Below the pieces are notes generated by a model. It had not been told where the DNA came from. It searched no databases and was given only the letters and a program-made list of their open reading frames with translations. DNA of 63,820 nt, from positions 1-63,820 of the IMG/VR virus record IMGVR_UViG_3300034760_000013; one strand, given 5' to 3'. Shown here piece after piece: positions 25,092 through 51,277 of the stretch; the first letter of the stretch is position 1, and every line of letters starts with the position of its first letter. Source of the DNA: a virus. The position numbers and the translations under genes are program-made.

Positions 25092-25106
25092 ATACCGATT
25101 TGGTCT
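25092..25106. promoter_or_regulatory. Imperfect operator ATACC-N5-GGTCT
   Basis: ATACCGATTTGGTCT has one mismatch in the right half-site. It lies over the weak -10 region of the cI-side promoter. Confidence 0.45.
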
Positions 25107-25141
25107 TAGACCATGCGGCGCTTACAATTTATGCAAAGGGT

Positions 25142-25711
25142 ATGTCTTTGCTCCGCGAATTTCGGGAGGCCGCGGGTCTTTCGCAGGCTCAGCTTGCGGA
25201 AGCTGCAGAAACCTCTCAACCGCAGATTAACCGTCTCGAAACGGGAGTGCGCGTGCTTACCCGTAAATGGGCGCAGCGGCTGGCGGGGCCTCTTGGCATA
25301 TCGTGGCAACAGTTGCAGCCTGACGAACGTCCGGTACGGATCGTTGGCCACGTCAGAGCTGGCGCCGAAGCAATCCTCTACACCGATGGGAGCGGAGACT
25401 TTGGCGAGGCTGAGCGACCCCCTGGAGCTTCGGAGACAACGGTGGCTGTCTCTGTAAAGGGGGACTCAATGCGTGGTGCCGCCGAGGACGGCTGGCTGCT
25501 CTATTACGACGAGCGGCGCGACCCGCCGCCGGAATACGTTGACCCGCGCGCACTTTACGTTTGCGGACTTTACGACGGCCGAGTTGTAGTGAAAAAACTG
25601 CGCGTTGGCTCGAAACAGAACCACTATCACCTGATCTCGACCAGCGGCGAGCCGGAGTTCGACGTGCCAGTGGACTGGGCCGCTCGCGTAACTTGGATTA
25701 AGCCCCTGTAA
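25142..25711 (+). CDS. CI-like repressor: XRE HTH plus LexA/Peptidase_S24 autocleavage domain
   Basis: LSQAQLAEAAETSQPQINRLETG HTH. GDSM Ser and VVKKL Lys motifs. Ala-Gly in the linker. Start chosen at MSLLREF. Confidence 0.85.
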   Translation: MSLLREFREAAGLSQAQLAEAAETSQPQINRLETGVRVLTRKWAQRLAGPLGISWQQLQPDERPVRIVGHVRAGAEAILYTDGSGDFGEAERPPGASETTVAVSVKGDSMRGAAEDGWLLYYDERRDPPPEYVDPRALYVCGLYDGRVVVKKLRVGSKQNHYHLISTSGEPEFDVPVDWAARVTWIKPL

Positions 25712-28848: not shown

Positions 28849-29135
28849 GAGCGCCGGCCCTGTTTCCCCTTTCAGAACTGCGCCTACTCACCCGCGAGGA
28901 GGCGGCCGGCTATCTCAATATCAGCACCACCACGTTCGATGAGAGAGTCAAGGATGGTCGCCTGCCAGGTCCGTTGCTGGAGGACGAGACGCGCAGCGGG
29001 AAGGGCAAACACGGCCGTCGAAAAGGGTACCTGGGGCCGCTTCTCTGGGACAGATGGCTGATCGATCAGAAGATTAGTGACGTATCGCTGCGTCGGCGCA
29101 GCGAAGTGGCTGACGAAATGGCCGATGTCGCGTGA
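28845..29135 (+). CDS. xis: Excisionase / MerR-AlpA-like HTH protein
   Basis: LLTREEAAGYLNISTTTFDERVKDGRLPGP. Immediately upstream of and overlapping the integrase gene. Confidence 0.65.
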   Translation: MRAPALFPLSELRLLTREEAAGYLNISTTTFDERVKDGRLPGPLLEDETRSGKGKHGRRKGYLGPLLWDRWLIDQKISDVSLRRRSEVADEMADVA

Positions 29136-30205
29136 TCGCGCTCAGCCTGAAGCACCTGATTTCCGACAAGGATCGGAAGGGCAACGTGCGCTTCTACGTC
29201 CGCGTCGCGGGCGCAAAGAAGAAGCGCATCCGCGGCGAGCCAGGCAGTCAGGAGTTTATCCAGGACTATACGCGGGCCGTTGCGAGTGCCTTGACCGAGG
29301 CCGGGCGACGCAGCCGGCGCGAGGAAAGCGGCACGGTTGGCTGGCTGGTCGAGCGCTATCTCAAGAGCGGCGATTTTGCCGACCTGGACAAGGGCACGCA
29401 GGACCGGAGGCGACGCATGCTGACTGAGTTCAGCGAAGCCTATGGCGATCGCCGGGCCGAGCGCCCCCGCAAGTTCGTGGTCACGGCCATGGACAAGTGG
29501 AAGGCAGCGCATGGTCCGCACGGCGCCAACAACCGGCTGAAGGCCCTCCGCGGCATGTATGGCTGGGCTGTGCATCAGGAGCTGGTGGATCGAGACTCAA
29601 CGCGCGAGGTCAAGCCGTTCTCGCCGCCGAGTGAGGGCTGGCACACCTGGACGACGGCCGAGATCCGCAAGTTCATGGCCCACTGGCCGCTCGGCTCGGC
29701 GCCGCGCGTCGCCATGACGGTCATGCTCTGCACGGGCACACGCATCTCCGACGCCTACCGGATCGGGCCGCAGCACCTGCGCCAGCAGCACAAGGAGCAG
29801 CGCATCGTGTTCCGGCCAGGCAAGACCGAGGACACCAGCGGCATCGAGGTCAGCATCCCGGTGCTGCCCATGCTCGCAGAGGCGCTCGCAGCCGGGCCGA
29901 CCAGCGACCAGGCCTTTGTGGTGGCCAAGCGCGGCAAGGCATTCAGCTCACCGGAGGCGCTGGGCAATTCATTCAAGCGCTGGTGTGTGGAGGCGGGGCT
30001 ATCGCATTGCTCGGCGCATGGTCTGCGCAAGGGCGGGGCGACGCTCCTGGCCGAGTCTGGCGTGACCAGCTCGCAGCTCATGGCGATCTACGGCTGGACG
30101 AAAATGGAGATGGCCGAGCGCTACACCAGGAAGGCGGATCGTTCCCGATTAGGGAGCGCTCTCAGCGGTGGATTCGGGCTGGAAGAGGAGAGAGGCGATG
30201 AATGA
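29132..30205 (+). CDS. int: Tyrosine integrase
   Basis: TGTRISDAYR..., HGLRKGGATLL (HxxR) and YGWTKMEMAERYTRKADR (catalytic Tyr context). Arm-binding-like N-terminus. Confidence 0.9.
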   Translation: MIALSLKHLISDKDRKGNVRFYVRVAGAKKKRIRGEPGSQEFIQDYTRAVASALTEAGRRSRREESGTVGWLVERYLKSGDFADLDKGTQDRRRRMLTEFSEAYGDRRAERPRKFVVTAMDKWKAAHGPHGANNRLKALRGMYGWAVHQELVDRDSTREVKPFSPPSEGWHTWTTAEIRKFMAHWPLGSAPRVAMTVMLCTGTRISDAYRIGPQHLRQQHKEQRIVFRPGKTEDTSGIEVSIPVLPMLAEALAAGPTSDQAFVVAKRGKAFSSPEALGNSFKRWCVEAGLSHCSAHGLRKGGATLLAESGVTSSQLMAIYGWTKMEMAERYTRKADRSRLGSALSGGFGLEEERGDE

Positions 30206-30614
30206 TGAAGGAATGGAAGAGCGCCGCAGGATCAGAGAAGCCGCCGACAGAGCCGAAAGGAAATCAGCCGTGAAACCTAAGAAGATCATCGAGAGCAATG
30301 TCACCGAAATCTGGGCCGTGGACGAACTGCGAAACTACAGATCACCCAAGATAATGACGCATTACAGGGAGGCGCTAGAACCCGAGGCCCTCTACGCAAT
30401 GGCACTGATCGAGAAATGGGGCTTGGTGATGGGCGCGCCGGCAGGCGAGGACAGCGCAGGCCGCGCTATGGTCGGCCTTATGCCGGTCGAGGATATAGTT
30501 CAGCGCGGGTTTGATGTCGCGCGCCTTGCCTATTCCGAAGCTGGCAAGCGCGGGCTGGTGTTAACGCTCCCGTCCTACGCTGATCTGGCTGAAGCAGGCG
30601 ACGCCGATGGGTAA
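30198..30614 (+). CDS. Hypothetical protein
   Basis: GAGGAGAGAGG RBS upstream of the ATG at 30198. 138 aa. Confidence 0.55.
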   Translation: MNDEGMEERRRIREAADRAERKSAVKPKKIIESNVTEIWAVDELRNYRSPKIMTHYREALEPEALYAMALIEKWGLVMGAPAGEDSAGRAMVGLMPVEDIVQRGFDVARLAYSEAGKRGLVLTLPSYADLAEAGDADG

Positions 30615-31116
30615 CTTTCGGTTTCTACGCCGTGATGTCGACCGTCGTGGGAACCCGCGCTTCTATGTGCGTCGCGCCGGATGGCTCCAGGCACGACTGC
30701 GCCAGCCTTTCGGCACGGAGGAGTTTCGTGCCGAATATGAGGCCGCAGTAGCCGGCCTGATTCCAAAGCCGGAAAGGCCCGGCGACGCCAAATGCTGCGT
30801 GTATGTCGTTGCGGCGGATGAGCAGCCGATCAAGGTCGGCATAGCCATCGATCCGGCCGAACGCCTGAAGCGGCTGCGTAGCGGCAACCCTGCCAGGCTA
30901 CACCTCAAGGCCGTGCTGGAGACCACAAAGGACCGGGCCGTCAGGATCGAGCGGACCCTCAAAGCGTGGATGCGTGACTACCGTCTTTTCGGGGAGTGGT
31001 TTGACGTTCCGAGCGACGAAGCAATAGCCCTTTTGGACCGTGCAGCAGAGCGTTTTGGAGGACGAAAAGTCCCACTCGGTAGTCCCACTTTCAGAGGGGG
31101 CGAAATAGCCCAATGA
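30607..31116 (+). CDS. Integrase-N-terminus-like domain fused to a T5orf172/MUG113 (GIY-YIG-like) domain
   Basis: The N-terminus DRRGNPRFYVRRAG...FGTEEFRAEYEAAVAG parallels the integrase DRKGNVRFYVRVAG...PGSQEFIQDYTRAVAS. The C-terminal VYVVAADEQPIKVGIA..RLKRLRSGNP...GEWF is T5orf172-like. Confidence 0.7.
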   Translation: MGNFRFLRRDVDRRGNPRFYVRRAGWLQARLRQPFGTEEFRAEYEAAVAGLIPKPERPGDAKCCVYVVAADEQPIKVGIAIDPAERLKRLRSGNPARLHLKAVLETTKDRAVRIERTLKAWMRDYRLFGEWFDVPSDEAIALLDRAAERFGGRKVPLGSPTFRGGEIAQ

Positions 31117-31260: not shown

Positions 31261-31279
31261 CCACTTTTGAGGTGGCGTG

Positions 31280-31675
31280 ATGCCGGGGCCGAAAAACTGG
31301 GACGGATTGACCGTCAACGGTCCCAATTTGGAGACGCTCTGTAAGAGGCGCCCGCAGCGGCTTTGGCCGAAGGTTGGGGGCGTTTATTTCGCCGAAACGG
31401 AAGGGCTGGTGAAGATCGGCCTGTCAGCACACATCGCGTTTCGGCTTGAAGATCTCCGCTGCGCCTGCCCATTCGAGATCACTCTCCTGCATTTCGAAAG
31501 GGGCTACGAGCGCAGGGACGAGCGTCGCCTTCATCGGCAGTTCGATGAGTATCGCGTTCGAGGTGAGTGGTTCCGCTGCGAGGGCGAGCTCCTGTCGTTC
31601 CTGGTCGACAGGGGGGCCTACCTGCCGCCCAGGTTTTGGCCGACTAAGAGGCAGCGACTGGCGGTGGTCTTATGA
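31280..31675 (+). CDS. T5orf172/MUG113 (GIY-YIG-like) domain protein, paralogue of 30607..31116
   Basis: GGVYFAETEGLVKIGLS...RLEDLR...HRQFDEYRVRGEWF. GAGGTGG RBS before the ATG at 31280. Confidence 0.65.
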   Translation: MPGPKNWDGLTVNGPNLETLCKRRPQRLWPKVGGVYFAETEGLVKIGLSAHIAFRLEDLRCACPFEITLLHFERGYERRDERRLHRQFDEYRVRGEWFRCEGELLSFLVDRGAYLPPRFWPTKRQRLAVVL

Positions 31676-39011: not shown

Positions 39012-41621
39012 ATGAAGGGCCTGCGCTACCTACCCGACTGCCGAGTGCTGTCGACCGTGAGCCTGGTGCAGTCCCTGAAGGCGGCCGACTATTGGACCGC
39101 CTCTGCCATGTACGACGCGATCGAGGAGAAGGACGAGCTCACCGACACCGAGCTGGCGTTTCTCGGCTGCAACGACCGCTTCTACCTGCTCGCCTACCTC
39201 TGCAATCGCAAGGACGTGCGGCACCCCTGGCTATTTGATCGCTGCCGCGAGGTCGAGGCTGACCCTGATGACCGCTTAGACCTCTGGGCCAGGTGGCACT
39301 ACAAATCCACGATCATCACGTTCGCGGGGGCAATCCAGGAGATCCTCGCCGACCCCGAGATCACGATCGGGATCTTCGCGGCCAAAAACGACGTAGCGAG
39401 ACCCTTCTTGATGCAGATCGCGGAGGAGCTCGCCGGCAACGAGCGGTTGAAGCGCATCTACAGCGACGTCCTGTGGGCTAATCCGAAGGCGGAAGCTCCC
39501 ACCTGGGCTGTCGATAAAGGCATAGCCGTCAAGCGTGTGAGCAACCCGAAGGAGCGCACAGTCGAGGCCTACGGCCTCATCGACGGAATGCCTACGGGCC
39601 GACATTTTCGCCTCCTGATCTACGACGACCTGGTCACCGAGAAGCTCGTCAACAACGAGGAGCAGGTCAAGAAATGCACCCAACGCTGGGAGCTGTCCAC
39701 CAACCTGGGCTCCGGTGAGAACGCCAGGCGCTGGCACATCGGGACAAGATACTGCACAATCGGCAGCATGCGAATCCTCATGTCTGACTGGTCCCACAAG
39801 CCAATTTCCGAGGTGAAGGTCGGCGATGAAATCGTCGGCTGGGAACTGCGCGACGGTAAGCGCTGGCTTCGACCATCCAAGGTAGTCGACCGTGGCATGC
39901 ATGCTAACGAGCCCGTCCGGCGCTTTGGCTTTGAGAACGGGCGCACAGTGACGTGCACAGCGGATCATCGCTGGTGGCGCGGTGCACATGGTGGCGGGCC
40001 CGAATACGCGCCTCTGGCGCTTCCTGGCCATGGCAGGCGGGCTAAGGGCAAGAAGGCACCTGCAGGACACCTGATGCACATCAGGCAGCTCCTCGTCCCC
40101 GTCGATCCTGATCCTGGCCGCGAAGCCGGCTGGCTGGCTGGGTTCTATGACGGTGAGGGCACGTTCAAGAAGAACAAGAACCATCCGAGCGGCGTGGTTG
40201 CGCTCACGCAGACAATGGCAAACCCCGGTCTGATCGAAAAGGTGCGCGTAGCGCTTGGTGCGCTCGGCTTTGTCTGGACCGAGTCATGGTTCAAGCCAAG
40301 CGAAGGCACTATTGTCCCGTCCAAGCCACACCTCAACATGAAGGCATGGAAGGACCGCTGCGCCTTCTACATCAACGGCGGGTGGCGCGAGCGCTACCGC
40401 TTCCTCGCGCAGATCGCGCCCACACGCCGGGACAAAATCGCCGAAAGCCTGTTCGGGCAGCTCACGACCGATGGCCTCAAAGTCACATCCGACGAGGATG
40501 CAGGAACGGCCGAGGTGCACTGGCTCGAAACCGAAACTGGCAACTACGTCATCGAGGGTTTCTGCTCGAGCAATAGCTACGGCGACACCTATGGGCTGAT
40601 CATGTCCCGCGGCTCCGTGCAAGAACGCAAATACCCAGCCACGCACAACGGCAAGATGGAGGGCGTCCCCGTCTTCATGAGTCAGGCGGCCTGGGACAAG
40701 GTGAAGCGCGATCAGCGCTCGAGCTGCGCCGCGCAGATGCTGCAGAACCCCCTCGAGGGCAGCAACAATATGTTCGATCCGCGGTCACTGCGCTCCTACG
40801 CGACCAGGCCGAGGGTTCTGAACATTTATATCATGGGCGATCCGTCCCATGGATCGAAGGCCAAGACCTCCGACCGCACGGCGATCGTGGTGGTGGGCGT
40901 CGACAGCACCGGCAACAAGTATCTCTTGGACGGCTATGCGCACCGCATGCGCCTGACCGATCGCTGGAAGAACCTGCAGAACCTCTACAGGAAGTGGAAG
41001 CCGGACAACGCACCAGGCGTGCAGAGCATCAAAGTCGGCTGGGAGCGCTACGGTATGCAGTCCGACCTGGACTACTTCCAGGAGCAGATGATGATGCCCG
41101 ACGCTGAAAACTTCCCCATCCAGGAGCTGAACTGGACGCGCGAGGGCAACGAGAGCAAGAAAGCCCGCGTCGGTCGCCTCGAGCCGGATTTCGGCAACAG
41201 CCGCTTCTTCCTGCCGGCCAAGGTCTATGTGAACAACGCCCCCTGGATAGGCGAGGACGGCAGACCTCAGTCTGGGCCGCGCGTCTGCAACTGGTATGTG
41301 GACGAGGAGAGCGGCGAGGTCCGGTGGAAGCCGATCAAGCTCAACCCCGAGCGCGGCAACATCCCCTACGAGTCGAAGATGGAGCGCCAGCTCCGGCAGT
41401 CCGGAGATGGCTTCCTGGTGATCGAGCCAATCCAGCGGCGGGATCCCAACGACCGCAGCGCCTATGACCTGACGCGCATGTTCTTTGAGGAGTTCAGATT
41501 GTTTCCTTTAGCGCCGCACGACGACCTCATCGACGCGACGGCGCGCATCTACGACATGAGCCCGCACCCGGCGATAGTGATCGACCAGACTTTGATGTTG
41601 AGCCCCGTTTATGCCGATTGA
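39012..41621 (+). CDS. terL: Terminase large subunit, interrupted by a 274-aa intein
   Basis: Walker-A-like ARWHYKST, Walker-B LLIYDDLV, and ...RWHIGTRY | intein | SYGDTYGLIM. C-terminal nuclease-like region with IMGDPSHG...D and DDLIDA. Confidence 0.85.
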   Translation: MKGLRYLPDCRVLSTVSLVQSLKAADYWTASAMYDAIEEKDELTDTELAFLGCNDRFYLLAYLCNRKDVRHPWLFDRCREVEADPDDRLDLWARWHYKSTIITFAGAIQEILADPEITIGIFAAKNDVARPFLMQIAEELAGNERLKRIYSDVLWANPKAEAPTWAVDKGIAVKRVSNPKERTVEAYGLIDGMPTGRHFRLLIYDDLVTEKLVNNEEQVKKCTQRWELSTNLGSGENARRWHIGTRYCTIGSMRILMSDWSHKPISEVKVGDEIVGWELRDGKRWLRPSKVVDRGMHANEPVRRFGFENGRTVTCTADHRWWRGAHGGGPEYAPLALPGHGRRAKGKKAPAGHLMHIRQLLVPVDPDPGREAGWLAGFYDGEGTFKKNKNHPSGVVALTQTMANPGLIEKVRVALGALGFVWTESWFKPSEGTIVPSKPHLNMKAWKDRCAFYINGGWRERYRFLAQIAPTRRDKIAESLFGQLTTDGLKVTSDEDAGTAEVHWLETETGNYVIEGFCSSNSYGDTYGLIMSRGSVQERKYPATHNGKMEGVPVFMSQAAWDKVKRDQRSSCAAQMLQNPLEGSNNMFDPRSLRSYATRPRVLNIYIMGDPSHGSKAKTSDRTAIVVVGVDSTGNKYLLDGYAHRMRLTDRWKNLQNLYRKWKPDNAPGVQSIKVGWERYGMQSDLDYFQEQMMMPDAENFPIQELNWTREGNESKKARVGRLEPDFGNSRFFLPAKVYVNNAPWIGEDGRPQSGPRVCNWYVDEESGEVRWKPIKLNPERGNIPYESKMERQLRQSGDGFLVIEPIQRRDPNDRSAYDLTRMFFEEFRLFPLAPHDDLIDATARIYDMSPHPAIVIDQTLMLSPVYAD
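39753..40574 (+). mobile_element. Intein (Hint domain with a LAGLIDADG-like motif) within terL
   Basis: Starts with Cys (CTIGSMRIL). Block B TCTADH. LAGFYDGEGTF motif. Ends ...VHWLETETGNYVIEGFCSSN followed by +1 Ser. Joining the exteins gives GTRY-SYGD. Confidence 0.8.
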
Positions 41622-41952
41622 GCTGCCGCGCGAACACGCATAGCCTCCGACTCAGGGTGCAGCGCAAGCTGCCGAAAGCCGGGGTCACTCCAGACGTCGG
41701 GCCCCAGGATTTGACGCTAGCGGTTTCCCGCCTGAATACCGCAATGCGCCAAAGGCGAGGGCTCGGAACCAGTCCCATGCAAGCTCTGAAACCAGCCCTC
41801 GCCACTTCCCTTCTGCTCCGAACTGTCACCGTATGGTGCGCGTGCCGGCCAATCGGCCGGATAGGAGCAGACGCCGGTGATGTGTGGTGCCCCGCTGGTG
41901 CTAGGGGCTACAAGAACGACTGCACGTCTGAAATCGGACCAGCGGGCCGGCG

Positions 41953-42255
41953 ATGAAAGTCTGGGCAATCCTTGAGTGCTACGACTACGCAGGCGCCAAC
42001 GAGAGCACCGTGTCCGTCTGGAGCTCCGAGCAACGCGCCGACGCCGAGATCGTCAGGCGGAAGGCTGTGAACCTTGGCCAGCCTGACGAATACCAGGTCG
42101 TCGAGCTCGAGGTGGACAAGGTGCGGGACGTGCCGCCATCAGGCGCGCCTTCAGAGATTTCCGGCGAGTTCAGCGACACGATGAGTCAGGCTCTAGTGCC
42201 CAGCATTTACGACCTGAAGCTAGAGCCGTACTGGGGCGACGATGAACCGGCGTGA
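41953..42255 (+). CDS. Hypothetical protein
   Basis: 100-aa ORF with an acidic C-terminus. Confidence 0.5.
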   Translation: MKVWAILECYDYAGANESTVSVWSSEQRADAEIVRRKAVNLGQPDEYQVVELEVDKVRDVPPSGAPSEISGEFSDTMSQALVPSIYDLKLEPYWGDDEPA

Positions 42256-42550
42256 GCTCCTGATCGGCACTGCAGCGGCTGGCGCGGCGACCCTGCTGCC
42301 GGCGCCGGCCGAGGCGGTCACCGGGACTGACTTCTGGATTTCCGAGAACGGCATGTTCTGCTTTGAGCAGTCCATCTTTGATGGCTTCAGGTTCGTCGGA
42401 ACGATGACTTACACCTACAGAGCCAGCCTGCTAGAGATGTTCTGCGAGGAACTCAGCTCGAATACACCCACGGACGGCGGATCGGCTGATCCGGCGGCGC
42501 CGTCAGCGTCAGCAGCGCCCGGCATACGTCCTGGACTTCTTGAAAGCTGA
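42242..42550 (+). CDS. Small secreted protein with twin-arginine (Tat) signal peptide
   Basis: MNRRELLIGTAAAGAATLLPAPAEA|V. The 3' end is uncertain because it overlaps a convergent ORF. Confidence 0.5.
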   Translation: MNRRELLIGTAAAGAATLLPAPAEAVTGTDFWISENGMFCFEQSIFDGFRFVGTMTYTYRASLLEMFCEELSSNTPTDGGSADPAAPSASAAPGIRPGLLES

Positions 42551-42800
42551 TCGGCTCCAGCGCCGTGCTGTTACCCGTGATGTGCTCGATCAGCTCGAGC
42601 TCCGTCATCGTCAGTATTTCGGCTGCTACCTGTCGGTTCCGCATCGAAGTCTCCAGTCCCACGCTGGGAGTAGAAGGGATCGCGAGTCGGATTGTTCCGA
42701 TCACGCTCTGCGGCGCGACGCATTAACTCATCTACATTTGGCAGTCGGAGGCGGTCGAGATTGCGCAGCGGGTCTGTCGGCATGGCTGGATCCTGGGCAT

Positions 42801-42832
42801 GAAAAAGGGCGCCGTGGTCATCATCGGCGCCC
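42801..42832 (-). terminator. Rho-independent terminator of the reverse-strand moron
   Basis: On the minus strand: GGGCGCCG-N10-CGGCGCCC followed by TTTTTC, about 90 nt after the stop at 42924. Confidence 0.7.
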
Positions 42833-42923
42833 GCTAAAGGCTCATTACTGCCCGTCCGTGGCAGTCCGCGTCACCAGGGCATGATCATGTCCGCCTCGCT
42901 AGTGATTTGCTACAGCATCAATA

Positions 42924-43619
42924 TCAACGCCCCGGAGCTGGTTCCGTCAAGCCAGATTGAACGCTCTCCAGGACCATGTGCGCCATCTCCTCATTGACCC
43001 TGGCCAGGTCGAGGGTGGTCTCGGCACGCAGCACCACGTCGTGCGCGATCTCCTGATGCTGCAGCGCCAGGGCGCGGATGGCTTCCAGAGCCTGCTCCTT
43101 GATCTCCAATGGATCCGCTCCTGGCTTCTGCTCCAGCCGTAGGGCTGCGCTTGTGATCGCGGCGATGTTGCCGACGCGGTGATACATGTCTTTGATCGCG
43201 TGGTCTCGCGCCGCCAGGGCATGGTCACGCTCCACGGCGCATCTATCCCGCTCGCGTGTCAGCATCAACTCAACCTGCTTCGGGCTGGGCAGGTTTTTGA
43301 TCTTCGGCATCAGGAAAGCCATCGCCGCCGCCGTTACCGCCGAAACCGTGGCTGTGAACATGCGCACGCCGCCCTCGAGCCAGGTCTCGCCTGGCTGGAG
43401 CTGAGAGAACACATGGATCAGGTGAGTGGTCCCGCAGGCCGCGATGAAGGTTACAAACAGGATCCACACTGCGGGAAAGGGCAGGTCTTCCTTGCGGTTG
43501 CGAAGCACGAGAAGCATCGAAATCGGGATGGAATAATACGAGAGCGCGATGGTCAGGTCTGACCAGACGAAAATTCCTACGAGGCCACCTGTCGTGCAGA
43601 GCTCATACAGCGCCTCCAT
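42924..43619 (-). CDS. Ethylene-receptor-like (copper/ethylene-binding) 3-TM domain fused to a HisKA_2/HWE-type DHp domain, with no ATPase domain
   Basis: WSDLTIALSYYSIPISMLLVLRNRKEDLPFPAVWILFVTFIAACGTTHLIHVF parallels ETR1 [52 protein letters not shown], including the Cys/His pair. H-box MYHRVGNIAAITSAALRL. GGGAGG RBS. Has its own terminator. Confidence 0.75.
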   Translation of the reverse strand: MEALYELCTTGGLVGIFVWSDLTIALSYYSIPISMLLVLRNRKEDLPFPAVWILFVTFIAACGTTHLIHVFSQLQPGETWLEGGVRMFTATVSAVTAAAMAFLMPKIKNLPSPKQVELMLTRERDRCAVERDHALAARDHAIKDMYHRVGNIAAITSAALRLEQKPGADPLEIKEQALEAIRALALQHQEIAHDVVLRAETTLDLARVNEEMAHMVLESVQSGLTEPAPGR

Positions 43620-43732
43620 TTTGGCGACACCTCCCGGTCGTGCTATTCTACCCCCTGCCTGCCGAATCGCCCCTCTTAGTCGGTAGTGCGTCACATCCCT
43701 GTCCCAAACGCGACAACGAGGATCCGGCGCAC

Positions 43733-43987
43733 ATGGCAAGGCAAGTCTCAGGCACGATTGCAGCGACAGGCGAAGGCACTTCCCTCGCTGGCAAAGTGGT
43801 GGACGTCTCGATCTCGGGCACCTGGGTCGGCACGGTCGATGTCCAGCGCGCCATGGGCGCGACCTGGAACACGATCGAGAGCTACACGGGCAACGCCGAG
43901 GTCGTCGTCGAGAACGCCACCAAGGTTCCGGTGCGCGTCTATTTCACCCGCACTTCTGGGTCCGTAGACTACCTGCTTCAGGCCTGA
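43733..43987 (+). CDS. Small virion-associated protein
   Basis: GAGGA RBS. 84 aa, beta-rich. Precedes the large fibre gene. Confidence 0.55.
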   Translation: MARQVSGTIAATGEGTSLAGKVVDVSISGTWVGTVDVQRAMGATWNTIESYTGNAEVVVENATKVPVRVYFTRTSGSVDYLLQA

Positions 43988-43991
43988 TCCG

Positions 43992-46900
43992 TTGATCCGG
44001 TCCACAACGCGCTCGGCCATTCGTCGGCCGCGGATCGGTGACGACACAACCGTCACCGCGATCCCGCCCCGCCCGTCCCTCAGCAACAGCTCGGTCACGG
44101 AGAATTCCCCCGTCGAGACCGTCGTAGGCGTGTTTTCGAACGTCTTCGATGGCGCGTTGATGACGCTCAGCGGCGGCAATGGCTGGTTCAAGGTACAGAC
44201 GCCAAGCACGCGCACCTTGCTGACGACCGACACGCCGGCCGACTTCGAGACCAACCCGCTCCCGTCGATCACGATCACGCTCGAGGATCCAACGGGCTAT
44301 TACCGCACGACCAGCTTCGTCTACCCGATCACGGTCTTCAACGAGGTCTACGAGGGCGCTCCCGTCATCACGACGGCCGCCCAACACACCTTCTTCGCGG
44401 GGGAGGACTACGCGGTCCCCCTCACGGCCGACCGGCCTGTCACCTGGGCGCTTACCGGCGGCGCTAACCAGGCGAGCGCCACTGTGACCGGCCCGACGGC
44501 CACGCTCAATCCAGGCACGCTGGCCGGCACCTACGTCATCCAGGTCACAGCCACCGGCGCCAACACCCAGTCGACCCCCAAAACCCTCACCATTGTGGTG
44601 GCCGAGATGGTGCAGAGCGCTTTCCAGCTCGAGTGGCTCGAGGCCGAGGGCTTGGACGCCCTTAAGTCAGGCTTTGGCGGCTTCCAGAACCCCTACCACC
44701 AGAAGAGCCCCTGGAACGCCTACCCGGTTAACCCGACGCTGAGCGCCACGGGCATCCGGTCGCTTCTCTACACCTCGGCCGGCGCGTCCACCGCGCACGT
44801 CGCCTGGCTGAACAAGAATGGCTACGGCACCTTCATGAGCCAGGCCAAGGAGGGCGACCCGTCGATGACGGTCTACGGCCTCTCCGGCAGCGCCAACGTC
44901 AATGTCGGCGACGAGGCTAAGACCCGCGCTGTTGTTATCCCGCGCTGGCCCACCAACGAGGACGGCACATCGCCCGTCACACCGGCCACCGGCTCAGACG
45001 GCCACGCCGAGATCTATGACCCGATCCTGGGCGTGTTTCACTCCTTCTGGAAGCTGCGCAAGCCGTTCTCCGAGGCCAACCCCACCGACAAATGGGTCGC
45101 TGCCAAATACTCCTGCATTCCGGCTGGCGGCCTGGGCTGGCCCTACCCGGAGCGCCCTGATGGGCCGCGCGCGGTAGGCGCCTCGACGGCTGGCGGCGCT
45201 CTACGCATCCACGACTACACCACTGCGGCCGCCGCCGCAGCCGGCAACGGCTTCGGTCATGCTCTGGCCATCGCGCTCGCCGGCCGAGCCATCGACCACG
45301 AGCCGGCCTATCCGGCCATGCTCGAGGATGCCCGCGGTTACTTGGAATACGAAAACCGCAAGGCGGCCTACAACCACGTCAACAACGCCAACCCTGGCGT
45401 CCGCATGGGCTCGCACCTGCTGCTGCCCTCGGATTTCTCCCTGACGGGGCTGAACACCTACGAGACGGCGATGGCCAAGACGCTGATGCGTCACGGGGCC
45501 TACGTCACCGACATGACGGGCTTCGACGGCAACACCTTCGCCTTCTTCGGCGAGATCGGCTCCGACTGGGCTCCGACCACCAACAGCGGCAGCACGACTG
45601 CTGTTCGCCAGACCTTCCTGACCAACGTGCGCAACGCGCTCAAGGTCCGTGCCAGCCAGGATAGCTGGGTGGACGGCACCGGCGCAGCGTTCACGCCGGT
45701 GAGCTGGGACGACCAGAACCTGCTCTCAATGCGCCTGCCGCAGTGGGTTTCGGGGACGAACATCCTGTCCTCGCCCTACACCGCCCGCTTCAACACGCAG
45801 GACCGGCTGCTTGTCTGCCCGGATACCACGACAGCCGACAGCAACCTCATCGTCATCAAGCGGCCGCGCCCGGCCCACGTGGAGGTCACTGAGCCGGAGC
45901 CGTGGTGGCGTTGGCAGCAGGTAAAATACGAGAGCTCCGACAACCGCACTCGCTCTTGGTTCTCGCATAACCCGATCGGGGCCGAGACCTACCGCTTCAA
46001 GGTCTTCGGCTATGGCGGCTTCTCCGCCCGGATCCTGATCAAGACCTTTGGCGGCGCGACCCACTACGACAGCAACACCGACTTCGCGGCCACTGGCGGC
46101 TACATGACGCCAGGCCAGGAGATCACCGCGGCCTACGTCGACGGCGCCGAGGTGCATGTGCTGGTTAAGAAGTCCCCAGGCGGCGCCTCTGGCATCCGTG
46201 TGGAGATGCAGCGCGTCGCGGCCATCCCCGAGGAGCCAGACGACATCCTCGAGGAGCTCTTCAGCAACGGCGAGCGCGGCGCGGTCTTCGATCCTGACCG
46301 CTTCGAGTCGCTCTACACCTCAAGCGCAGTGATCGGTGACGTTGGCTCGCAGGTCTGGGGCATCATCGACACCAAGGACTGGGCGCTCAGCGACGACGCA
46401 GCAAGCGCCTCAATAGGCGCCAACATGATTGGCGCCCTGGTCGACACGCCTGTGACGCACGTCAACGGGGCGATGCCGAACAACTCCGGCTGGTTCAACA
46501 TCTCCAACGGCAGCCCTGCTGGCGCTGGCGTTGTCGGCGGTGTGCTCGTCCTTACGACCACCGGCACCCTCGACGGCCAGGTCTACAAGACGCTGACCAC
46601 CGTCGCCGGCAAGATGTATCGCGTTAGCTTCCGCGCCGAGGGCGTGGACTTTCTGTGGAGCGTCGGCACCGCCACATCGGCCTTGTCCACACAGCTCATG
46701 TCTACCTCCGGGGCCATCGGCTCCGGGTTCAAGGAAGCCTTCTTCGTCGCCACTGGCAGTGTCGCCTATCTGCACTTCGGGCAGAGCTTCACGGCGGGCA
46801 ACACGGAGATCGAAGACCTCCAGTGCCAGGAGATGCCTGGCTACATGGCTAGAGCGGCGTCTCGGCAAACGCTCACCACGCACCCGGTCTACCGAGGCTA

Positions 46901-48386
46901 CCTCGACCACGACGGTGTCGACGACCTGCTGGTCGCCCAGTTTGGCACAACGCTCGGGGCCACCTGCACTGTCGCCTCCGTAACGGATGCCGGCGGCGTT
47001 ACGATCTCGACCGGCGTCAACATCGGCACGACCTACAATCTGCCGACGACCGACTGGCGGCTGTGCGTCATCGTCGATCGCGCTCTGACAGGCGACGAAA
47101 CCACAGCCCTGACGGCCGCCCTCGAGGCCAGGCGCAACAAGGGCTCAGCCTCCTATGTCTGGGCCGGTGAGCAGACAACGACCAGCCTCATGGCCAGCGT
47201 CTACCTCACGCAGGACGGCAAGGTCCGGCTTGCGGTGGCAACAACCCCCAGCATGGACGAGCTCGTCTGGTCGCCGGCGATCCAGTCGGTGAACAAGTCA
47301 GCGCGATGCACCGTGACCGGCCTCGAGCCAGGCACGACCTACTACGGCCGCTTCGAGTGCGACGGCACCTGGGTCGGCCCGAAGCTGCGCATGAAGACCA
47401 TCAAGGAAGTCACGACAGGCGTTCCGCAGACCTTCTCCGTAGCTCTGGGCTCCTGCGCCGGCGACACAGCCGCGGTCAGCTCCAGCACCAGCTTCCAGCG
47501 CGTGATCGACCGCAATCCTGACGCCCTCTTCGACATGGGCGACATCCACTACCAGGACATCGACAGCGCCGATCCGCAGCTCTACCGCAACGCCTATGAA
47601 ACGTGGGTCTTCAGGGGCCCCCTGCGTCACAAGATGATGCGGAACGTGAATGCCTACTACATGTATGACGACCATGACTCGGCCGGCGAGGATGGCTTTT
47701 CGGATGCGTCCACCCAACAGACGGGCGTCCCTGCGGTTCGCCGTGCTTACCGCGACATGGTCCCCGTCACCCCAGTCGAGCCTGGCCTCACCGATCCTCC
47801 CTACTACACGGTGAAGATGGGCCGCATGATCTTCATCGTGACGGACGTTCGCACGGCAAAATCCTTCAAATCCAACACCGACAGCGCCAGCAAGACCATG
47901 ATGGGTGCTGCTCAAAAGGCTTGGTTCCTGAATGTCCTGGCTAGCAACCCAGGCTGCGTCTTCACCTGGGTCCAGACCGGCGTCTGGATCTCCGCTTCGG
48001 GCAATGACTACTGGTTCACTTGCAGCGTCGAACGCGCCGAGATCGCCAACGAGATGAAGCGCCTCGGCCTGCAGGGTAAGATCTGCATGGTCTCCGGCGA
48101 CATGCACGCCCAGGCGATCGACAGTGGGGCCAACGCCGACTACGCGACCGGCGGCGGCATGGACATCCCCGTGTTCCACGCAGGTCCGTGGAACAAGCCG
48201 GTCTCGTCCAAGGGCGGCCCCTACAGCTCGGGCACGGCGTATCCGGCCTCCGGCACCGGCCAGCAGTATGGCATGATGACCTGGACCGACAACGGCGTCG
48301 ACCCGATCACCGTCGAGTGGGCCGGCTACAAGGGCTCCAACAACGATTCAACCGGCGTGAGCCTGACGTTCCAGCTTACCCCATAG
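43992..48386 (+). CDS. Large tail fibre/host-recognition protein (1464 aa) with C-terminal PhoD-like metallophosphodiesterase
   Basis: Ig-like/CBM-like middle segments. The C-terminus has a PhoD_N-like FN3 (YYGRFECDG), then GSCAGD, MGDIHY (47538), YDDHD (47664) and SGDMH (48092). The TTG start is uncertain. Confidence 0.75.
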   Translation: MIRSTTRSAIRRPRIGDDTTVTAIPPRPSLSNSSVTENSPVETVVGVFSNVFDGALMTLSGGNGWFKVQTPSTRTLLTTDTPADFETNPLPSITITLEDPTGYYRTTSFVYPITVFNEVYEGAPVITTAAQHTFFAGEDYAVPLTADRPVTWALTGGANQASATVTGPTATLNPGTLAGTYVIQVTATGANTQSTPKTLTIVVAEMVQSAFQLEWLEAEGLDALKSGFGGFQNPYHQKSPWNAYPVNPTLSATGIRSLLYTSAGASTAHVAWLNKNGYGTFMSQAKEGDPSMTVYGLSGSANVNVGDEAKTRAVVIPRWPTNEDGTSPVTPATGSDGHAEIYDPILGVFHSFWKLRKPFSEANPTDKWVAAKYSCIPAGGLGWPYPERPDGPRAVGASTAGGALRIHDYTTAAAAAAGNGFGHALAIALAGRAIDHEPAYPAMLEDARGYLEYENRKAAYNHVNNANPGVRMGSHLLLPSDFSLTGLNTYETAMAKTLMRHGAYVTDMTGFDGNTFAFFGEIGSDWAPTTNSGSTTAVRQTFLTNVRNALKVRASQDSWVDGTGAAFTPVSWDDQNLLSMRLPQWVSGTNILSSPYTARFNTQDRLLVCPDTTTADSNLIVIKRPRPAHVEVTEPEPWWRWQQVKYESSDNRTRSWFSHNPIGAETYRFKVFGYGGFSARILIKTFGGATHYDSNTDFAATGGYMTPGQEITAAYVDGAEVHVLVKKSPGGASGIRVEMQRVAAIPEEPDDILEELFSNGERGAVFDPDRFESLYTSSAVIGDVGSQVWGIIDTKDWALSDDAASASIGANMIGALVDTPVTHVNGAMPNNSGWFNISNGSPAGAGVVGGVLVLTTTGTLDGQVYKTLTTVAGKMYRVSFRAEGVDFLWSVGTATSALSTQLMSTSGAIGSGFKEAFFVATGSVAYLHFGQSFTAGNTEIEDLQCQEMPGYMARAASRQTLTTHPVYRGYLDHDGVDDLLVAQFGTTLGATCTVASVTDAGGVTISTGVNIGTTYNLPTTDWRLCVIVDRALTGDETTALTAALEARRNKGSASYVWAGEQTTTSLMASVYLTQDGKVRLAVATTPSMDELVWSPAIQSVNKSARCTVTGLEPGTTYYGRFECDGTWVGPKLRMKTIKEVTTGVPQTFSVALGSCAGDTAAVSSSTSFQRVIDRNPDALFDMGDIHYQDIDSADPQLYRNAYETWVFRGPLRHKMMRNVNAYYMYDDHDSAGEDGFSDASTQQTGVPAVRRAYRDMVPVTPVEPGLTDPPYYTVKMGRMIFIVTDVRTAKSFKSNTDSASKTMMGAAQKAWFLNVLASNPGCVFTWVQTGVWISASGNDYWFTCSVERAEIANEMKRLGLQGKICMVSGDMHAQAIDSGANADYATGGGMDIPVFHAGPWNKPVSSKGGPYSSGTAYPASGTGQQYGMMTWTDNGVDPITVEWAGYKGSNNDSTGVSLTFQLTP

Positions 48387-48404
48387 TCGCGCAGGATCCC
48401 GCCA

Positions 48405-48773
48405 ATGACCAGGACAGCCCTCCGATCCCCACCGCCTCGTCGCATCGGCGATGATGAATATGGCGGCCTCTACGCCACGGCGCAGATCAAGACCGATGCG
48501 ACCACGGCGCGGACGCTGTCCGACGACGACCACGGCTACATCCTCGATTTTACGTCGGGATCGGCTGTCACCGTGACGGTTCCTGCAGGCCTGCGGCCCG
48601 GCTTCTGCTGCGCGATCAGCCAGGGCGGCGCCGGCAAGGTGACGGTTGCGGCAGGTGCCGGCACAACAGTCAACGTAACAGGCGGCCTGCTCGGCACTGA
48701 GGCGCAATACGTCATGCTGCAGCTCATCCAGTTCGCGGGGAACGCCTACCGGCTCTACGGCAGGACTGCCTGA
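48405..48773 (+). CDS. Hypothetical tail-associated protein
   Basis: 122-aa ORF with an AGGA RBS. Confidence 0.55.
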   Translation: MTRTALRSPPPRRIGDDEYGGLYATAQIKTDATTARTLSDDDHGYILDFTSGSAVTVTVPAGLRPGFCCAISQGGAGKVTVAAGAGTTVNVTGGLLGTEAQYVMLQLIQFAGNAYRLYGRTA

Positions 48774-48916
48774 TGCTGTTCGCTGGCGGACTGATCGGGA
48801 TGGCGGCTAGGGGCGGGAGCGGGGGCGGGGGCGGGAGTCCACCGCTAACAATTTATGATCGCGCAGCAGCACCTATTCTGGATCGCGCTGGCTCAACCAT
48901 CGAAACGAGGGTTTAA
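48773..48916 (+). CDS. Small Gly-rich ORF (weak call)
   Basis: TGATG coupling. 47 aa. Contains a G-run. Confidence 0.3.
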   Translation: MLFAGGLIGMAARGGSGGGGGSPPLTIYDRAAAPILDRAGSTIETRV

Positions 48917-48919
48917 CCA

Positions 48920-49465
48920 ATGGCAAACATCTTCGACCTAGCTGATACTTGGAACGACATAGCGACCACGTTTCGTGCCATCAAAATGAACGTGACGGAC
49001 ACAGCGTCGGCGGCTGGCTCGCTGTTGCTGGACATTCAAAAAGGCTCAGTCAGCTATTTCAGCATCACCAAGAACGGCATTGCCAACCTCGTTGGGACCG
49101 GCTCCAACGGCAATGGCTACGGCTGGCACATAGAGAACTCTAACGGCGCTGCGCTAGGGCAGTTCAACGCCAAGGCCGGCCTCCACTTTGGCGCGAACGG
49201 TGTCGTAGCTTGGGGTGCCGGTGCGCCAGCGCAGGATAGCCAGGCACTAGACCTGATGGTCAATCGGTCGGCGGCGGGCGTCTTGGGCGTTCGTGGCGCG
49301 TCTACATCTGCAGGAGCAGCATTAGAGTTTGTTGAACAAACCGCTCCCTCTGCACCATCTGCCAACAGCGTTCGGCTCTACGCAGAGGACAACGGCTCAG
49401 GGAAGACCAGGATTGTCGCGCTGTTCCCATCAGGCGCAGCTCAAGTCTTGGCTGTCGAGCCGTGA
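48920..49465 (+). CDS. Tail fibre/tailspike adaptor-like protein
   Basis: 181 aa with a GAGGG RBS. Upstream of the beta-helix protein. Visibly more AT-rich. Confidence 0.55.
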   Translation: MANIFDLADTWNDIATTFRAIKMNVTDTASAAGSLLLDIQKGSVSYFSITKNGIANLVGTGSNGNGYGWHIENSNGAALGQFNAKAGLHFGANGVVAWGAGAPAQDSQALDLMVNRSAAGVLGVRGASTSAGAALEFVEQTAPSAPSANSVRLYAEDNGSGKTRIVALFPSGAAQVLAVEP

Positions 49466-50514
49466 GTGTTCCCGCTTATCGCGCCCTAGGTCTTGACGTC
49501 ATTGTTCCGTCTCGGATGCCCAATGGCGTCGATGATGATTTGGCTATCCTACAGACCGCGATAGACACCTGCTTCGGCACAACAGGGGCACCTCTCTCGC
49601 CGCTGAACTACCGCCCTCTGTATATCCCGCAAGGCGATTGGAAGGTGTCGGCGCCCCTGACAATGAGGGCAGTTCAGGGCGGCTGGGTTTATGGTGCGGG
49701 ACGCTTTGCCACCAAGATAACAAACACGACGGCGGGCAGCGTGTTTGTCACCAATGGATGCGCTTACAGCTTGTTCGAAAACATGCGGCTTGTTTCAAGC
49801 GGCTCCGCGGTAGTTTTTGACTTGGACTGGGACAACACCGGCCAAGCTGCTTTGCAGTCCAATACGCTTTCCAACCTATATTTTGAGGGCGGGGGCCACG
49901 GGCTTCGCATCGGCCATACTGGCTACATGGGGTCTGAAAACCTCATTCAGAACTGTGGGTTCAGCGGCCATTCCGTCGCTGGGGTAAGAACCCGAAACTA
50001 CAACGCGCTTCAGAACAAGATCGCCGGCGGCAACATTCAGTCCTGCGACATCGGCGTTTACGTTGAGTTCGGGAGCGTGCAAGACATCATTGGCACCGGC
50101 TTTCAACTCTCAACGACGTGGGACGTAAAAGTAGACAACTCGGCAGACGATTGCATGTCGCTTATTGGGTGTCGCAGCGAGAGTCCGAATTTCGTTCGCG
50201 CGCAGCATATTGGCCTGCATATGGCTGCGTGTAATCAGATAAACCTCACATCAGGCAAGTTTTTTGAGGGCACTGGACTGTTCTCCTTATCTGGCTGCAC
50301 GAGCATTGCCGGCCAGGTGATCTCCAACAATAACGGTGGCGATATAAAAAATTGCCAGTTCGGTCGCGATGACTGGATCGCAACTGCAAACGGCGCTCGC
50401 GTGAATGTCAGCATGACACGGGTGGGTGAAACCCTCGTTGATAGTGGTTCCGGCACGCCTCTTATGCTGACGCGAGGCTACGTTTCGGGCGCAAGCGTCT
50501 ATACGGCGAGCTAG
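49462..50514 (+). CDS. Right-handed beta-helix (pectate-lyase-like) tailspike/depolymerase
   Basis: Repeated N/G-rich turns (ENMRLVS, SNLYFEGGGHGLRIG, IQNCGFSGHSVAGV, GGNIQSCDIGVYV) typical of parallel beta-helix. Confidence 0.65.
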   Translation: MSVPAYRALGLDVIVPSRMPNGVDDDLAILQTAIDTCFGTTGAPLSPLNYRPLYIPQGDWKVSAPLTMRAVQGGWVYGAGRFATKITNTTAGSVFVTNGCAYSLFENMRLVSSGSAVVFDLDWDNTGQAALQSNTLSNLYFEGGGHGLRIGHTGYMGSENLIQNCGFSGHSVAGVRTRNYNALQNKIAGGNIQSCDIGVYVEFGSVQDIIGTGFQLSTTWDVKVDNSADDCMSLIGCRSESPNFVRAQHIGLHMAACNQINLTSGKFFEGTGLFSLSGCTSIAGQVISNNNGGDIKNCQFGRDDWIATANGARVNVSMTRVGETLVDSGSGTPLMLTRGYVSGASVYTAS

Positions 50515-50653
50515 GTAAATGCGGCCTAGGGTTCCATCTCGCCCGCGCGGTGAGGCCGTGCTAAGTTAAGCACCTGCCGCGCCGAATCGAGCGTGGCCAT
50601 CCCCCTTCCTTCTCAATCGTCCGTCCCACGCAACTCCTCTTTGAGGATGCCGG

Positions 50654-50833
50654 ATGCCGAGAAGCTCAAGGGTTCGCACGACCAGCCGTAACTTCGGCTC
50701 GATCGTTCGCCTCACCGATCCCGACTATGACCGCGAGCGCCGTGTCGCCGTGGAATACGATTTCCGCCCGCAAGGTGGCCGCCTGTTCACGGGCGACCCT
50801 GCCAAGCGTGGCGTCTACGCGCCGGAGGGTTAA
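50654..50833 (+). CDS. Small basic protein (59 aa, below the ORF-track cutoff)
   Basis: GAGG 7 nt upstream. Abuts the next gene's GTG start. Confidence 0.4.
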   Translation: MPRSSRVRTTSRNFGSIVRLTDPDYDRERRVAVEYDFRPQGGRLFTGDPAKRGVYAPEG

Positions 50834-51277
50834 GTGCCCATCGGAACCCCCCTCTGGCGAGCTGACACCAGCTCGGACAACACGCTTGAAGAGCAGCAGC
50901 AGGCCGTCCGTGACATCACGATCGCCAAGCGCATCGGCGAGCACCTCGATAGCCACTACCCGAGCCACAAGTTCAGGGTCGATGTCGACAGCCCCCAGGG
51001 CATCGCCAAGATCAGCCACCCCCTCCTGCCGAAGCGCTGGTTCTATGTGATCAAGCTCTCCGAGCTGTTCATGGATCCCGGCCTCAAGTGCGTCATGCGC
51101 GCCGGCGGCGAGCTGCTCGATCGCTTCAACATGCCCCGCGGCCGCTTCAATCGCGACCTGTGGCGCGAGGCCAGCACCGTCACCTACGCCAACCTCAAGC
51201 ACGGCATCTTCGAGCTCGAGTACAACGCCAAGACCGGCCAGGTGCGAAAGGTCATCCCCGATGCTCTCGCAGTCTAA
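50834..51277 (+). CDS. Hypothetical head-module protein
   Basis: 147-aa ORF with a GTG start. Confidence 0.55.
   Translation: MPIGTPLWRADTSSDNTLEEQQQAVRDITIAKRIGEHLDSHYPSHKFRVDVDSPQGIAKISHPLLPKRWFYVIKLSELFMDPGLKCVMRAGGELLDRFNMPRGRFNRDLWREASTVTYANLKHGIFELEYNAKTGQVRKVIPDALAV

Follow-up and report, generated by a model that had tools for sequence, protein, structure and literature searches.

A temperate-type phage genome encodes an ethylene-receptor-like membrane domain joined to a kinase-less HisKA_2/HWE-type phosphoacceptor hairpin

The virus record IMGVR_UViG_3300034760_000013 of IMG/VR comprises 63,820 nucleotides, and this whole stretch (positions 1 to 63,820) is the window analysed here. 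On its minus strand, a coding sequence at 42924..43619 specifies a protein of 231 amino acids plus a stop codon, in which an ethylene/Cu(I)-binding-type membrane domain passes directly into a diverged phosphoacceptor hairpin of the HisKA_2/HWE histidine kinase type, with no ATPase domain behind it. The gene is the sole clearly coding minus-strand gene in a plus-strand late block, and its reading frame, translation and orientation are as an initial annotation of the sequence had described them. Its start was fixed at the ATG at 43619, not at the TTG at 43739 upstream, because homologues begin at the equivalent position (MIADLYELC...). The codon-position G+C content is gene-like (0.65/0.42/0.76, in a window of 64% G+C), and the pattern of an antisense plus-strand open reading frame (ORF) at 43179–43562 is wrong and not gene-like. 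The identical 231-amino-acid protein was recovered in two independent assemblies (ENA k141, 63,834 bp; Logan, 63,723 bp).

Residues 13–108 (43296..43583, minus strand) match the Pfam ETR1_N family (PF25487) with an E value of 2.1e-26 and 92.5 bits against a cutoff of 27, covering profile positions 2–95 of 97; the profile thus bears out the ethylene-binding-type domain that the initial annotation had proposed. An AlphaFold2 model built on an alignment of 52 relatives (overall predicted local distance difference test score, pLDDT, 89.6) places three transmembrane helices at residues 11–41, 49–74 and 80–108, with pLDDT values of 89–98 there. Modelling from the single sequence gave a poor result (pLDDT 60). 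From the loop charges, namely the basic residues R40, R42 and K43 and a K106/K108/K114 cluster past helix 3, we infer an N-out/C-in topology.

In a pairwise alignment, the window protein keeps each of the seven residues on which ethylene binding by AtETR1 depends, the criterion also applied to AzoEtr1 (PMC11819568): D25, Y32, I35, P36, I62, C65 and H69 of AtETR1 correspond to D21, Y28, I31, P32, I59, C62 and H66 of the window protein. K91 of AtETR1 corresponds to R86. The AtETR1 reference (residues 1–139) reproduces the published residue numbering. Cys62 (codon 43434–43436, minus strand) and His66 (codon 43422–43424, minus strand) thereby fall at the Cu(I) ligand positions, and the helix-1 Asp and helix-2 Cys-x3-His pair singled out in the initial annotation are indeed the equivalents of D25, C65 and H69. 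Its wording that the domain aligns almost residue-for-residue with ETR1 was right about the register and the key residues, and overstated overall because identity to AtETR1 is only 30% over the binding domain. Ahead of the first helix lies a predicted periplasmic segment (43593..43619, minus strand) with a conserved cysteine, Cys8, in an L-x-x-L-C-T/S motif. Cys8 is invariant among the short relatives described below, is present in at least 90% of the 52 relatives, and aligns with the Cys4/Cys6 region of AtETR1, where these cysteines form the disulfide link of the ETR1 dimer. We also observed an added invariant histidine, His69 (codon 43413–43415), which extends the ligand pair to C-x3-H-x2-H in the clade with the L-x-x-L-C-T/S N terminus; AtETR1 has Asn at this position, and the residues of a 'PHGxC' clade vary there.

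The membrane domain is followed by a P-x-I-x-x-L-P-S-P hinge and a helical linker (residues 109–140; 43200..43295, minus strand) that runs unbroken into the first helix of the dimerization and histidine phosphotransfer (DHp) hairpin. In the AlphaFold2 model, a single continuous helix spanning residues 113–163 bears His147 and is followed by a turn and a second helix at 170–223. The spacing from the Ser of LPSP to the His is 35 amino acids in the window protein and 14, 28 or 35 amino acids in 12 of 12 members of the short family, always a multiple of seven, which argues for a continuous coiled coil that holds sensor and His in register.

Identifying the hairpin itself (residues ~141–192; 43044..43199, minus strand) took more than a plain library scan. 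The 231-amino-acid protein has no Pfam or NCBIfam match to HisKA_2 or HWE_HK (PF07568/PF07536), even at E ≤ 10, and no PHROGs family; a word-index search with the C-terminal 126 amino acids alone returned nothing at E ≤ 1, and a single-sequence search of the PDB nothing at E ≤ 10. A Foldseek comparison of the pLDDT 89.6 model with the PDB likewise gave nothing at E ≤ 1e-3, yielding only BAR-domain and membrane-helix look-alikes. By contrast, a hidden Markov model (HMM) made from the DHp regions of 52 kinases scored residues 106–231 at 24.1 bits (E 1e-9, for one sequence), against a maximum of 8.5 bits among 2000 shuffles. A profile of the short-family C terminus aligned with the kinase DHp profile at 98.6% hhalign probability (E 9.6e-16), and, run against all PDB sequences, it retrieved as its top four matches 5EPV, 4R39, 6PH4 and 4R3A (E 0.0035–0.012), all HWE/HisKA_2 LOV kinases and all aligned on the phospho-His. 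Two of the short relatives, P0014 at 38.8 bits and P0021 at 33.5 bits, exceed the Pfam HisKA_2 cutoff of 22.3 bits, and P0009, P0010 and P0011 reach 14–20 bits. By these indirect routes, the C-terminal half is a diverged HisKA_2/HWE phosphoacceptor hairpin, so that the H-box claimed at the outset is upheld through homology. The H-box reads Y-H147-R-V-G150-N151 (His147 codon 43179–43181), and the second helix ends in ...ALALQHQEI.

Beyond the hairpin, a C-terminal tail (residues 193–231; 42927..43043, minus strand) is modelled as helical to about residue 223. Residues ~190–220 align with the DHp-to-ATPase linker of full kinases, and the tail is missing from P0009, the closest cellular relative. 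The N-box and G-boxes are absent from the protein. The absence of HATPase_c (N, G1 and G2 boxes) means that the 231-amino-acid protein is not a histidine kinase, and the initial statement that it stops exactly where HATPase_c would begin is essentially correct, with the proviso that part of the tail still covers the interdomain linker. A hidden frameshift or a downstream ATPase domain was considered and rejected: when all six frames of the window were searched with a profile of 52 ATPase domains, nothing matched (best E 2.4), and tblastn gave chance-level matches only, elsewhere. These negatives, the terminator described below and the shortness of every homologue leave no room for a concealed frameshift.

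The same truncated architecture recurs in cellular genomes. An exhaustive phmmer search of 1.84 billion representatives returned 5763 matches (representative clusters). The best were short proteins of 192–226 amino acids aligned over query residues 4–192, and next came many ETR1_N proteins with a canonical HRVKN about 190–200 residues before the C terminus. The short kinase-less family is rare, with about ten cellular 50%-identity clusters of 190–226 amino acids, and a metagenome scan by H-box pattern added only one further contig (1.4 kb). Eleven short proteins, 31–57% identical to the window protein in the alignment, share as invariant residues C8, D21, Y28, P32, D45, F55, F58, C62, G63, H66, H69, T89, S93, P105, S112, L120, H147, G150 and N151. 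In the relatives retrieved, proteins without an ATPase always have H-x-x-G-N as their H-box, and those with one have HR[VI][KR]N.

The genomic settings of the closest relatives are chromosomal, on contigs of 50 kb to 1.4 Mb. P0009 (59% identity) is found on contigs of 158 kb and 67 kb among TauE, Alph_Pro_TM, DUF218, Lhr-helicase and PPK2 genes, P0010 adjoins cytochrome bd oxidase and NAPRTase, and P0014 lies near Mn-catalase and DUF892 genes, with its cluster member P0163 on a 1.37-Mb contig. A neighbour-joining tree built on the binding domain pairs the window protein with P0009 as its sister, within a clade that unites the short-family proteins with three kinases of about 350 amino acids bearing the same N-terminal motif, apart from the 'PHGxC' type. 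Judged from these alignments and this tree, the kinase-less architecture is that of a conserved cellular family, the source of the phage copy, and is not a phage truncation or invention. A scan of genome contigs was uninformative on the family's taxonomic range because the matches listed were dominated by cyanobacterial ETR1_N proteins. Both domains are already known, and ETR1_N–HisKA_2 kinases are common in databases; the kinase-less HRxGN family appears to be undescribed.

The three kinases, P0031, P0063 and P0066, resemble the window protein in the L-x-x-L-C-T/S and C-x3-H-x2-H motifs and in the direct passage from sensor through linker to DHp, with 35–38 amino acids from the LPSP hinge to the His. 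They match ETR1_N, and HisKA_2 at 55–67 bits; P0031 and P0066 also match HATPase_c, and P0063, with no HATPase_c Pfam match and a degenerate N-box, nevertheless continues for about 200 residues after the His. They differ from the short family in carrying HRVK/RN and in having 190–204 amino acids between the His and the C terminus, whereas the short proteins end 52–85 amino acids past it.

One short-family member has a different setting. In L097 (1688–4132; GCA_034680565.1, JAXOUH010025768.1), P0021 lies 0.9 kb 5′ of a 308-amino-acid membrane HWE-type kinase, and both sit within a long co-directional array of small overlapping ORFs at 46% G+C, in which phage-like matches are marginal (Lar-like and HNH; PHROG). 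This array may be a mobile element that pairs a kinase-less sensor with a kinase.

Turning to expression, a Shine–Dalgarno-like GGGAGG (43630..43635, minus strand) is read 10 nt 5′ of the ATG, and a candidate −10 element, TAGAAT, at 43645..43650 on the same strand. A hairpin at 42801..42832 (minus strand), 92 nt past the stop codon, consists of an 8-bp G+C stem with a 10-nt loop and a U5 tail (GGGCGCCG-N10-CGGCGCCC followed by TTTTT; folding free energy −19.9 kcal/mol, z score −2.0) and could plausibly serve the minus strand as an intrinsic terminator; a terminator scanner missed it because the loop exceeds the scanner's limit. No EcfG-type GGAAC-N15-18-CGTT motif occurs near the start of the gene. 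Past the terminator we observed a possible 63-amino-acid minus-strand ORF at 42453–42644, inside an 83-amino-acid ORF at 42453–42704 (G+C at third codon positions 0.74); it was called only by the Logan gene caller, overlaps the end of the Tat-signal ORF described below and has no Pfam match.

The carrier is, by its gene content, a podophage-like genome of the temperate type. Window bases 1–127 are identical to 63694–63820, corresponding to the assembler's k-mer overlap, and these identical ends indicate a closed circular genome of about 63.7 kb. Packaging and virion genes include those for a large terminase, a portal whose closest relative, P0168, is of the SU10 type (PF23899), a Gp80-type fibre protein, a virion protein, and tail-fibre, DNA-ejection and endolysin-domain proteins. 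A tyrosine-type integrase (29132..30205, plus strand; phrog_1, E 1.9e-32) and a CI/LexA-like repressor with helix-turn-helix and Peptidase_S24 domains (25100..25711, plus strand; phrog_4, E 7.7e-19; Pfam HTH_31/HTH_3 and Peptidase_S24) support the earlier assignment to a phage of temperate type, and RecT and exonuclease genes for recombination are also present. No tRNA genes were found in the window, and neither an attachment site nor an integrated copy was identified.

GenBank phages gave no nucleotide match to the 38–50 kb portion of the window. A portal search retrieved about 20 IMG/VR relatives with ~40% portal and 45–58% terminase identity, several of them 57–75 kb long, and all of them keep the order terminase, conserved small gene (homologue of 50834–51277) and portal. 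The interval between terminase and small gene measures 0.18–3.9 kb in 20 IMG/VR relatives and L122, versus 9.2 kb here; this synteny delimits a cargo island at 41622..50833, flanked by the terminase large-subunit gene and the conserved gene before the portal. No match to a window island gene turned up in the 20 relatives, and the L122 interval consists of two small ORFs only. The island holds the 231-amino-acid gene, a Tat-signal ORF, a 1464-amino-acid PhoD-domain protein and further ORFs that lack counterparts in related phages. The definition of a moron, or cargo gene, fits because of the gene's position, orientation and terminator.

The other island genes deserve mention in their own right. 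The ORF at 43992–48386 (1464 amino acids) ends in a PhoD-like phosphodiesterase domain (Pfam PhoD E 1.4e-10; phrog_13624 E 4.6e-45) preceded by an uncharacterized region of about 1050 amino acids, and may encode a virion-associated or auxiliary phosphatase. The 102-amino-acid ORF at 42242–42550, convergent to the 231-amino-acid gene, has a Tat signal-like N terminus (MNRRELLIGTAAAGAATLLPAPAEA; Pfam TAT_signal 18.1 bits, sub-threshold).

Elsewhere in the genome, the large terminase (39012–41621) is split by an intein of about 275 amino acids (about 39753–40577; residues ~248–522, C-T-I-G... to ...S-S-N|S). Most IMG/VR relatives join residues 247 and 523 directly, and L106 and L108 keep the intein; among GenBank phages, only mycobacteriophage terminase inteins match. 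A 2325-amino-acid ORF (8086–15063) has a central lysozyme/DarB-like segment and a last ~860 amino acids that match phrog_14770 (E 1e-174), a family of large phage proteins of unknown function, and is probably an ejected internal virion giant. Two neighbouring MUG113/T5orf172 (GIY-YIG-like) genes (30607–31116 and 31277–31675) lie just 3′ of the integrase.

No counterpart of the 231-amino-acid protein was found in 50,697 GenBank phages, nor among the short-family patterns scanned in IMG/VR, in agreement with the initial view that the architecture is not known from bacteriophages, and the literature searched contains no report of a phage-encoded ethylene-binding domain. The ethylene-binding domain as such also occurs in other predicted viral sequences: in six IMG/VR viral contigs, small proteins of ~100–150 amino acids consist of an ETR1_N-type domain only, at about 9950–10420 in L001, 1330–1692 in L004, 3200–3569 in L005, 9960–10318 in L006, 9960–10282 in L007 and 9960–10354 in L008. 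All six proteins keep the Cys-x3-His, and some of them have Asn or Gly at the position of Asp25; the L001 copy comes after two ORFs of more than 1100 amino acids, the first a tail protein (phrog_1101, E 4e-42). In L002 and L003, the ETR1_N domain is fused to a HisKA-type kinase.

Comparison with characterized systems helps to place the protein. Ethylene perception outside plants has been shown in few organisms, including Synechocystis and Azospirillum; AzoEtr1 of the alphaproteobacterium Azospirillum brasilense binds ethylene through an ETR1-type domain (PMC11819568). The window protein shares the three-helix ETR1_N domain with AtETR1, SynEtr1 and AzoEtr1 and, with AtETR1, the seven binding residues, an equivalent of K91 and an N-terminal Cys at the dimer-cysteine position. 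In those receptors the domain is followed by GAF, PAS or phytochrome modules and a full histidine kinase, to which a receiver may be added, whereas the window protein passes directly into a HisKA_2-type DHp, lacks an ATPase and is phage-encoded. Its DHp is homologous by profile to those of the HWE/HisKA_2 kinases (Erythrobacter EL346, 4R39/4R3A; Brucella LOV-HK, 5EPV/6PH4; Sphingomonas Pak), with their H-R-x-x-N present as H147-R-V-G-N and their conserved His/Gln patch in the second helix retained; unlike them, it has no catalytic domain and carries Gly at His+3, where the retrieved ATPase-bearing relatives have Lys or Arg.

A second set of likenesses concerns proteins that have given up kinase activity. 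PhyT of Sphingomonas melonis (formerly PhyP), an HRxxN protein whose ATPase is degenerate, works both as a phosphotransferase and as a phosphatase, and ChpT and Spo0B are cited as analogous cases (PMC5898713). Like PhyT, ChpT (Caulobacter) and Spo0B (Bacillus), the window protein would combine a sensor-kinase DHp origin and a conserved His with no use of ATP. Its sensor domain is unlike theirs, and its cellular homologues show no phyR-locus linkage; the likeness is not a claim of sequence orthology. Among phage proteins, PIT4 of the lytic Pseudomonas phage LSL4 is, according to the abstract of its report, an early protein that interferes with host two-component systems (PMC10714779). The window protein is likewise phage-encoded and would be expected to act on host two-component signalling; it differs from PIT4, which that abstract does not describe as a sensor-domain protein, in being a captured sensor/DHp module of a temperate-type phage.

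We favour, at about an even chance of its being right, a reading built on sequence and on analogy with these systems: the gene would be moron cargo for a host-derived signalling protein of the inner membrane, which would lack a kinase and act on host HWE/HisKA_2 pathways as a ligand-gated module for phosphotransfer or dephosphorylation. The protein would form a homodimer whose DHp four-helix bundle could not autophosphorylate and which would, for that reason, act in trans on the host HWE/HisKA_2 network, with a host response regulator as its target for histidine phosphotransfer or for phosphatase action, in the manner of PhyT, ChpT and Spo0B. Ligand occupancy, with ethylene bound through Cu(I) by analogy with AtETR1, SynEtr1 and AzoEtr1, would set the conformation of the hairpin through the coiled-coil linker. 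Expression from the gene's own signals, in a lysogen or during infection, would add to or override input to host signalling. In Alphaproteobacteria, HWE/HisKA_2 pathways include the general stress response. Retention of the family-invariant residues at 31–57% identity, with the linker register kept in all 12 proteins, points to selection for function and favours this reading. The invariance of His147 and Asn151 fits retained phosphoryl chemistry, and the appearance of Gly150 together with ATPase loss suggests that Lys or Arg at this position serves ATPase-dependent autophosphorylation.

Several observations weigh against this interpretation. The invariant Gly in place of Lys/Arg in the H-box could mean that the His is no longer used for phosphoryl chemistry, and PhyT, ChpT and Spo0B retain a degenerate ATPase-like domain whereas the window protein has none. 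The phage ORFs scanned include no response regulator, HWE kinase or PhyR/NepR/EcfG gene, and none adjoins the cellular homologues in L089, L092, L095 and L119. The one pointer to an alphaproteobacterial host is a PF09608 gene close to the nearest homologue, and lysogeny is read from gene content, not from an integrated copy. Finally, no promoter upstream of the gene passed a sigma-70 scan, the −35 element being absent; of the expression signals that the initial annotation credited to the gene, the GGGAGG, the TAGAAT and the hairpin are present, the TAGAAT as no more than a candidate −10 element.

The first alternative, the one favoured in the initial annotation, is that the protein is a heterodimerizing decoy or dominant-negative, which would pair with a host ETR1_N–HisKA_2 kinase or a host short-family protein and either block the partner's autophosphorylation or be trans-phosphorylated by it. 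Suitable partners exist: full-length kinases of the same N-terminal type with a direct sensor–DHp fusion (P0023, P0031, P0063 and P0066; HisKA_2 55–67 bits) group with the short family in the tree, P0021 lies close to a membrane HWE kinase, and the window protein retains the DHp-to-ATPase linker. However, the kinase-less form is conserved as a stand-alone protein in cellular genomes without an adjacent kinase, which argues for a function of its own rather than a viral inhibitor design. The 59% identity to the nearest known relative also makes efficient heterodimerization with a host paralogue uncertain, and the conserved periplasmic Cys and the homodimer-type layout favour a part in phosphotransfer or a phosphatase role over that of a simple decoy. 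On balance, we regard this alternative as unlikely.

A more specific form of the phosphotransfer reading names both ligand and purpose: the temperate phage would give its lysogen, or itself use, an ethylene receptor gating a kinase-less HRxxN phosphotransfer module, and so rewire the host HWE/HisKA_2 network, with outputs such as the alphaproteobacterial general stress response or surface colonization, or feed the lysis–lysogeny decision. Taken with all these specifics, it is rather improbable. Much the same low probability attaches to the reading that ethylene is irrelevant in the habitat and that the protein instead senses or binds copper, or another small ligand or redox signal, with the Cys-x3-His(-x2-His) site binding Cu(I) and the protein reporting or buffering membrane copper. 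C62 and H66, at the ligand positions, are invariant, the extra invariant His69 is specific to the clade, and thousands of ETR1_N proteins are found in bacteria that have no known link to plants (5763 representative clusters, and many proteins in cyanobacteria). Against a copper function stands the retention of all seven ethylene-binding residues, beyond the copper ligands, and every ETR1-type domain tested so far has bound ethylene, namely those of AtETR1, SynEtr1 and AzoEtr1 (PMC11819568).

It is very improbable that the gene is a piece of a host sensor kinase, acquired by illegitimate recombination and now in decay, that rides along without function. The C-terminal domain is indeed too diverged for Pfam, the 39-amino-acid tail resembles a remnant of the kinase linker, and the cargo island contains several ORFs of unknown function. 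Yet the reading frame is intact, with gene-like codon-position G+C, a ribosome-binding site and a terminator; every family-invariant residue is retained, including H147, G150 and N151; the heptad register of the linker is kept; and about ten divergent cellular lineages have kept this architecture. A last alternative, in which the window would be a piece of bacterial or plasmid DNA or a chimeric assembly and the gene an ordinary chromosomal one, would accord with the chromosomal setting of the closest homologues and the lack of a nucleotide or protein match in GenBank phages, but is scarcely credible given the 127-bp identical ends that close the contig, the ~63.7 kb obtained by two independent assemblers, the phage proteins encoded along its full length (terminase, SU10-type portal, Gp80 fibre, tail-fibre, ejection and endolysin-domain proteins), and the terminase–portal synteny shared with IMG/VR relatives of about 60 kb.

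The protein has a bearing beyond this phage. At about 200 amino acids, the binding domain, heptad-quantized linker and phosphoacceptor hairpin form a minimal natural construct that may offer a tractable system for studying how ethylene-binding domains transmit their signal, and the strict switch from Lys/Arg to Gly with ATPase loss hints at the role of that H-box position. The locus also points to a cargo hot spot in which phages carry sensor modules of this kind. If the ethylene-receptor reading is true, the protein would be the first virus-encoded ethylene sensor, and the 'HRxGN' short family would constitute a new class of ligand-gated histidine phosphotransferases. If functional, such modules could allow prophages to alter how soil and plant-associated bacteria read a plant hormone or copper.

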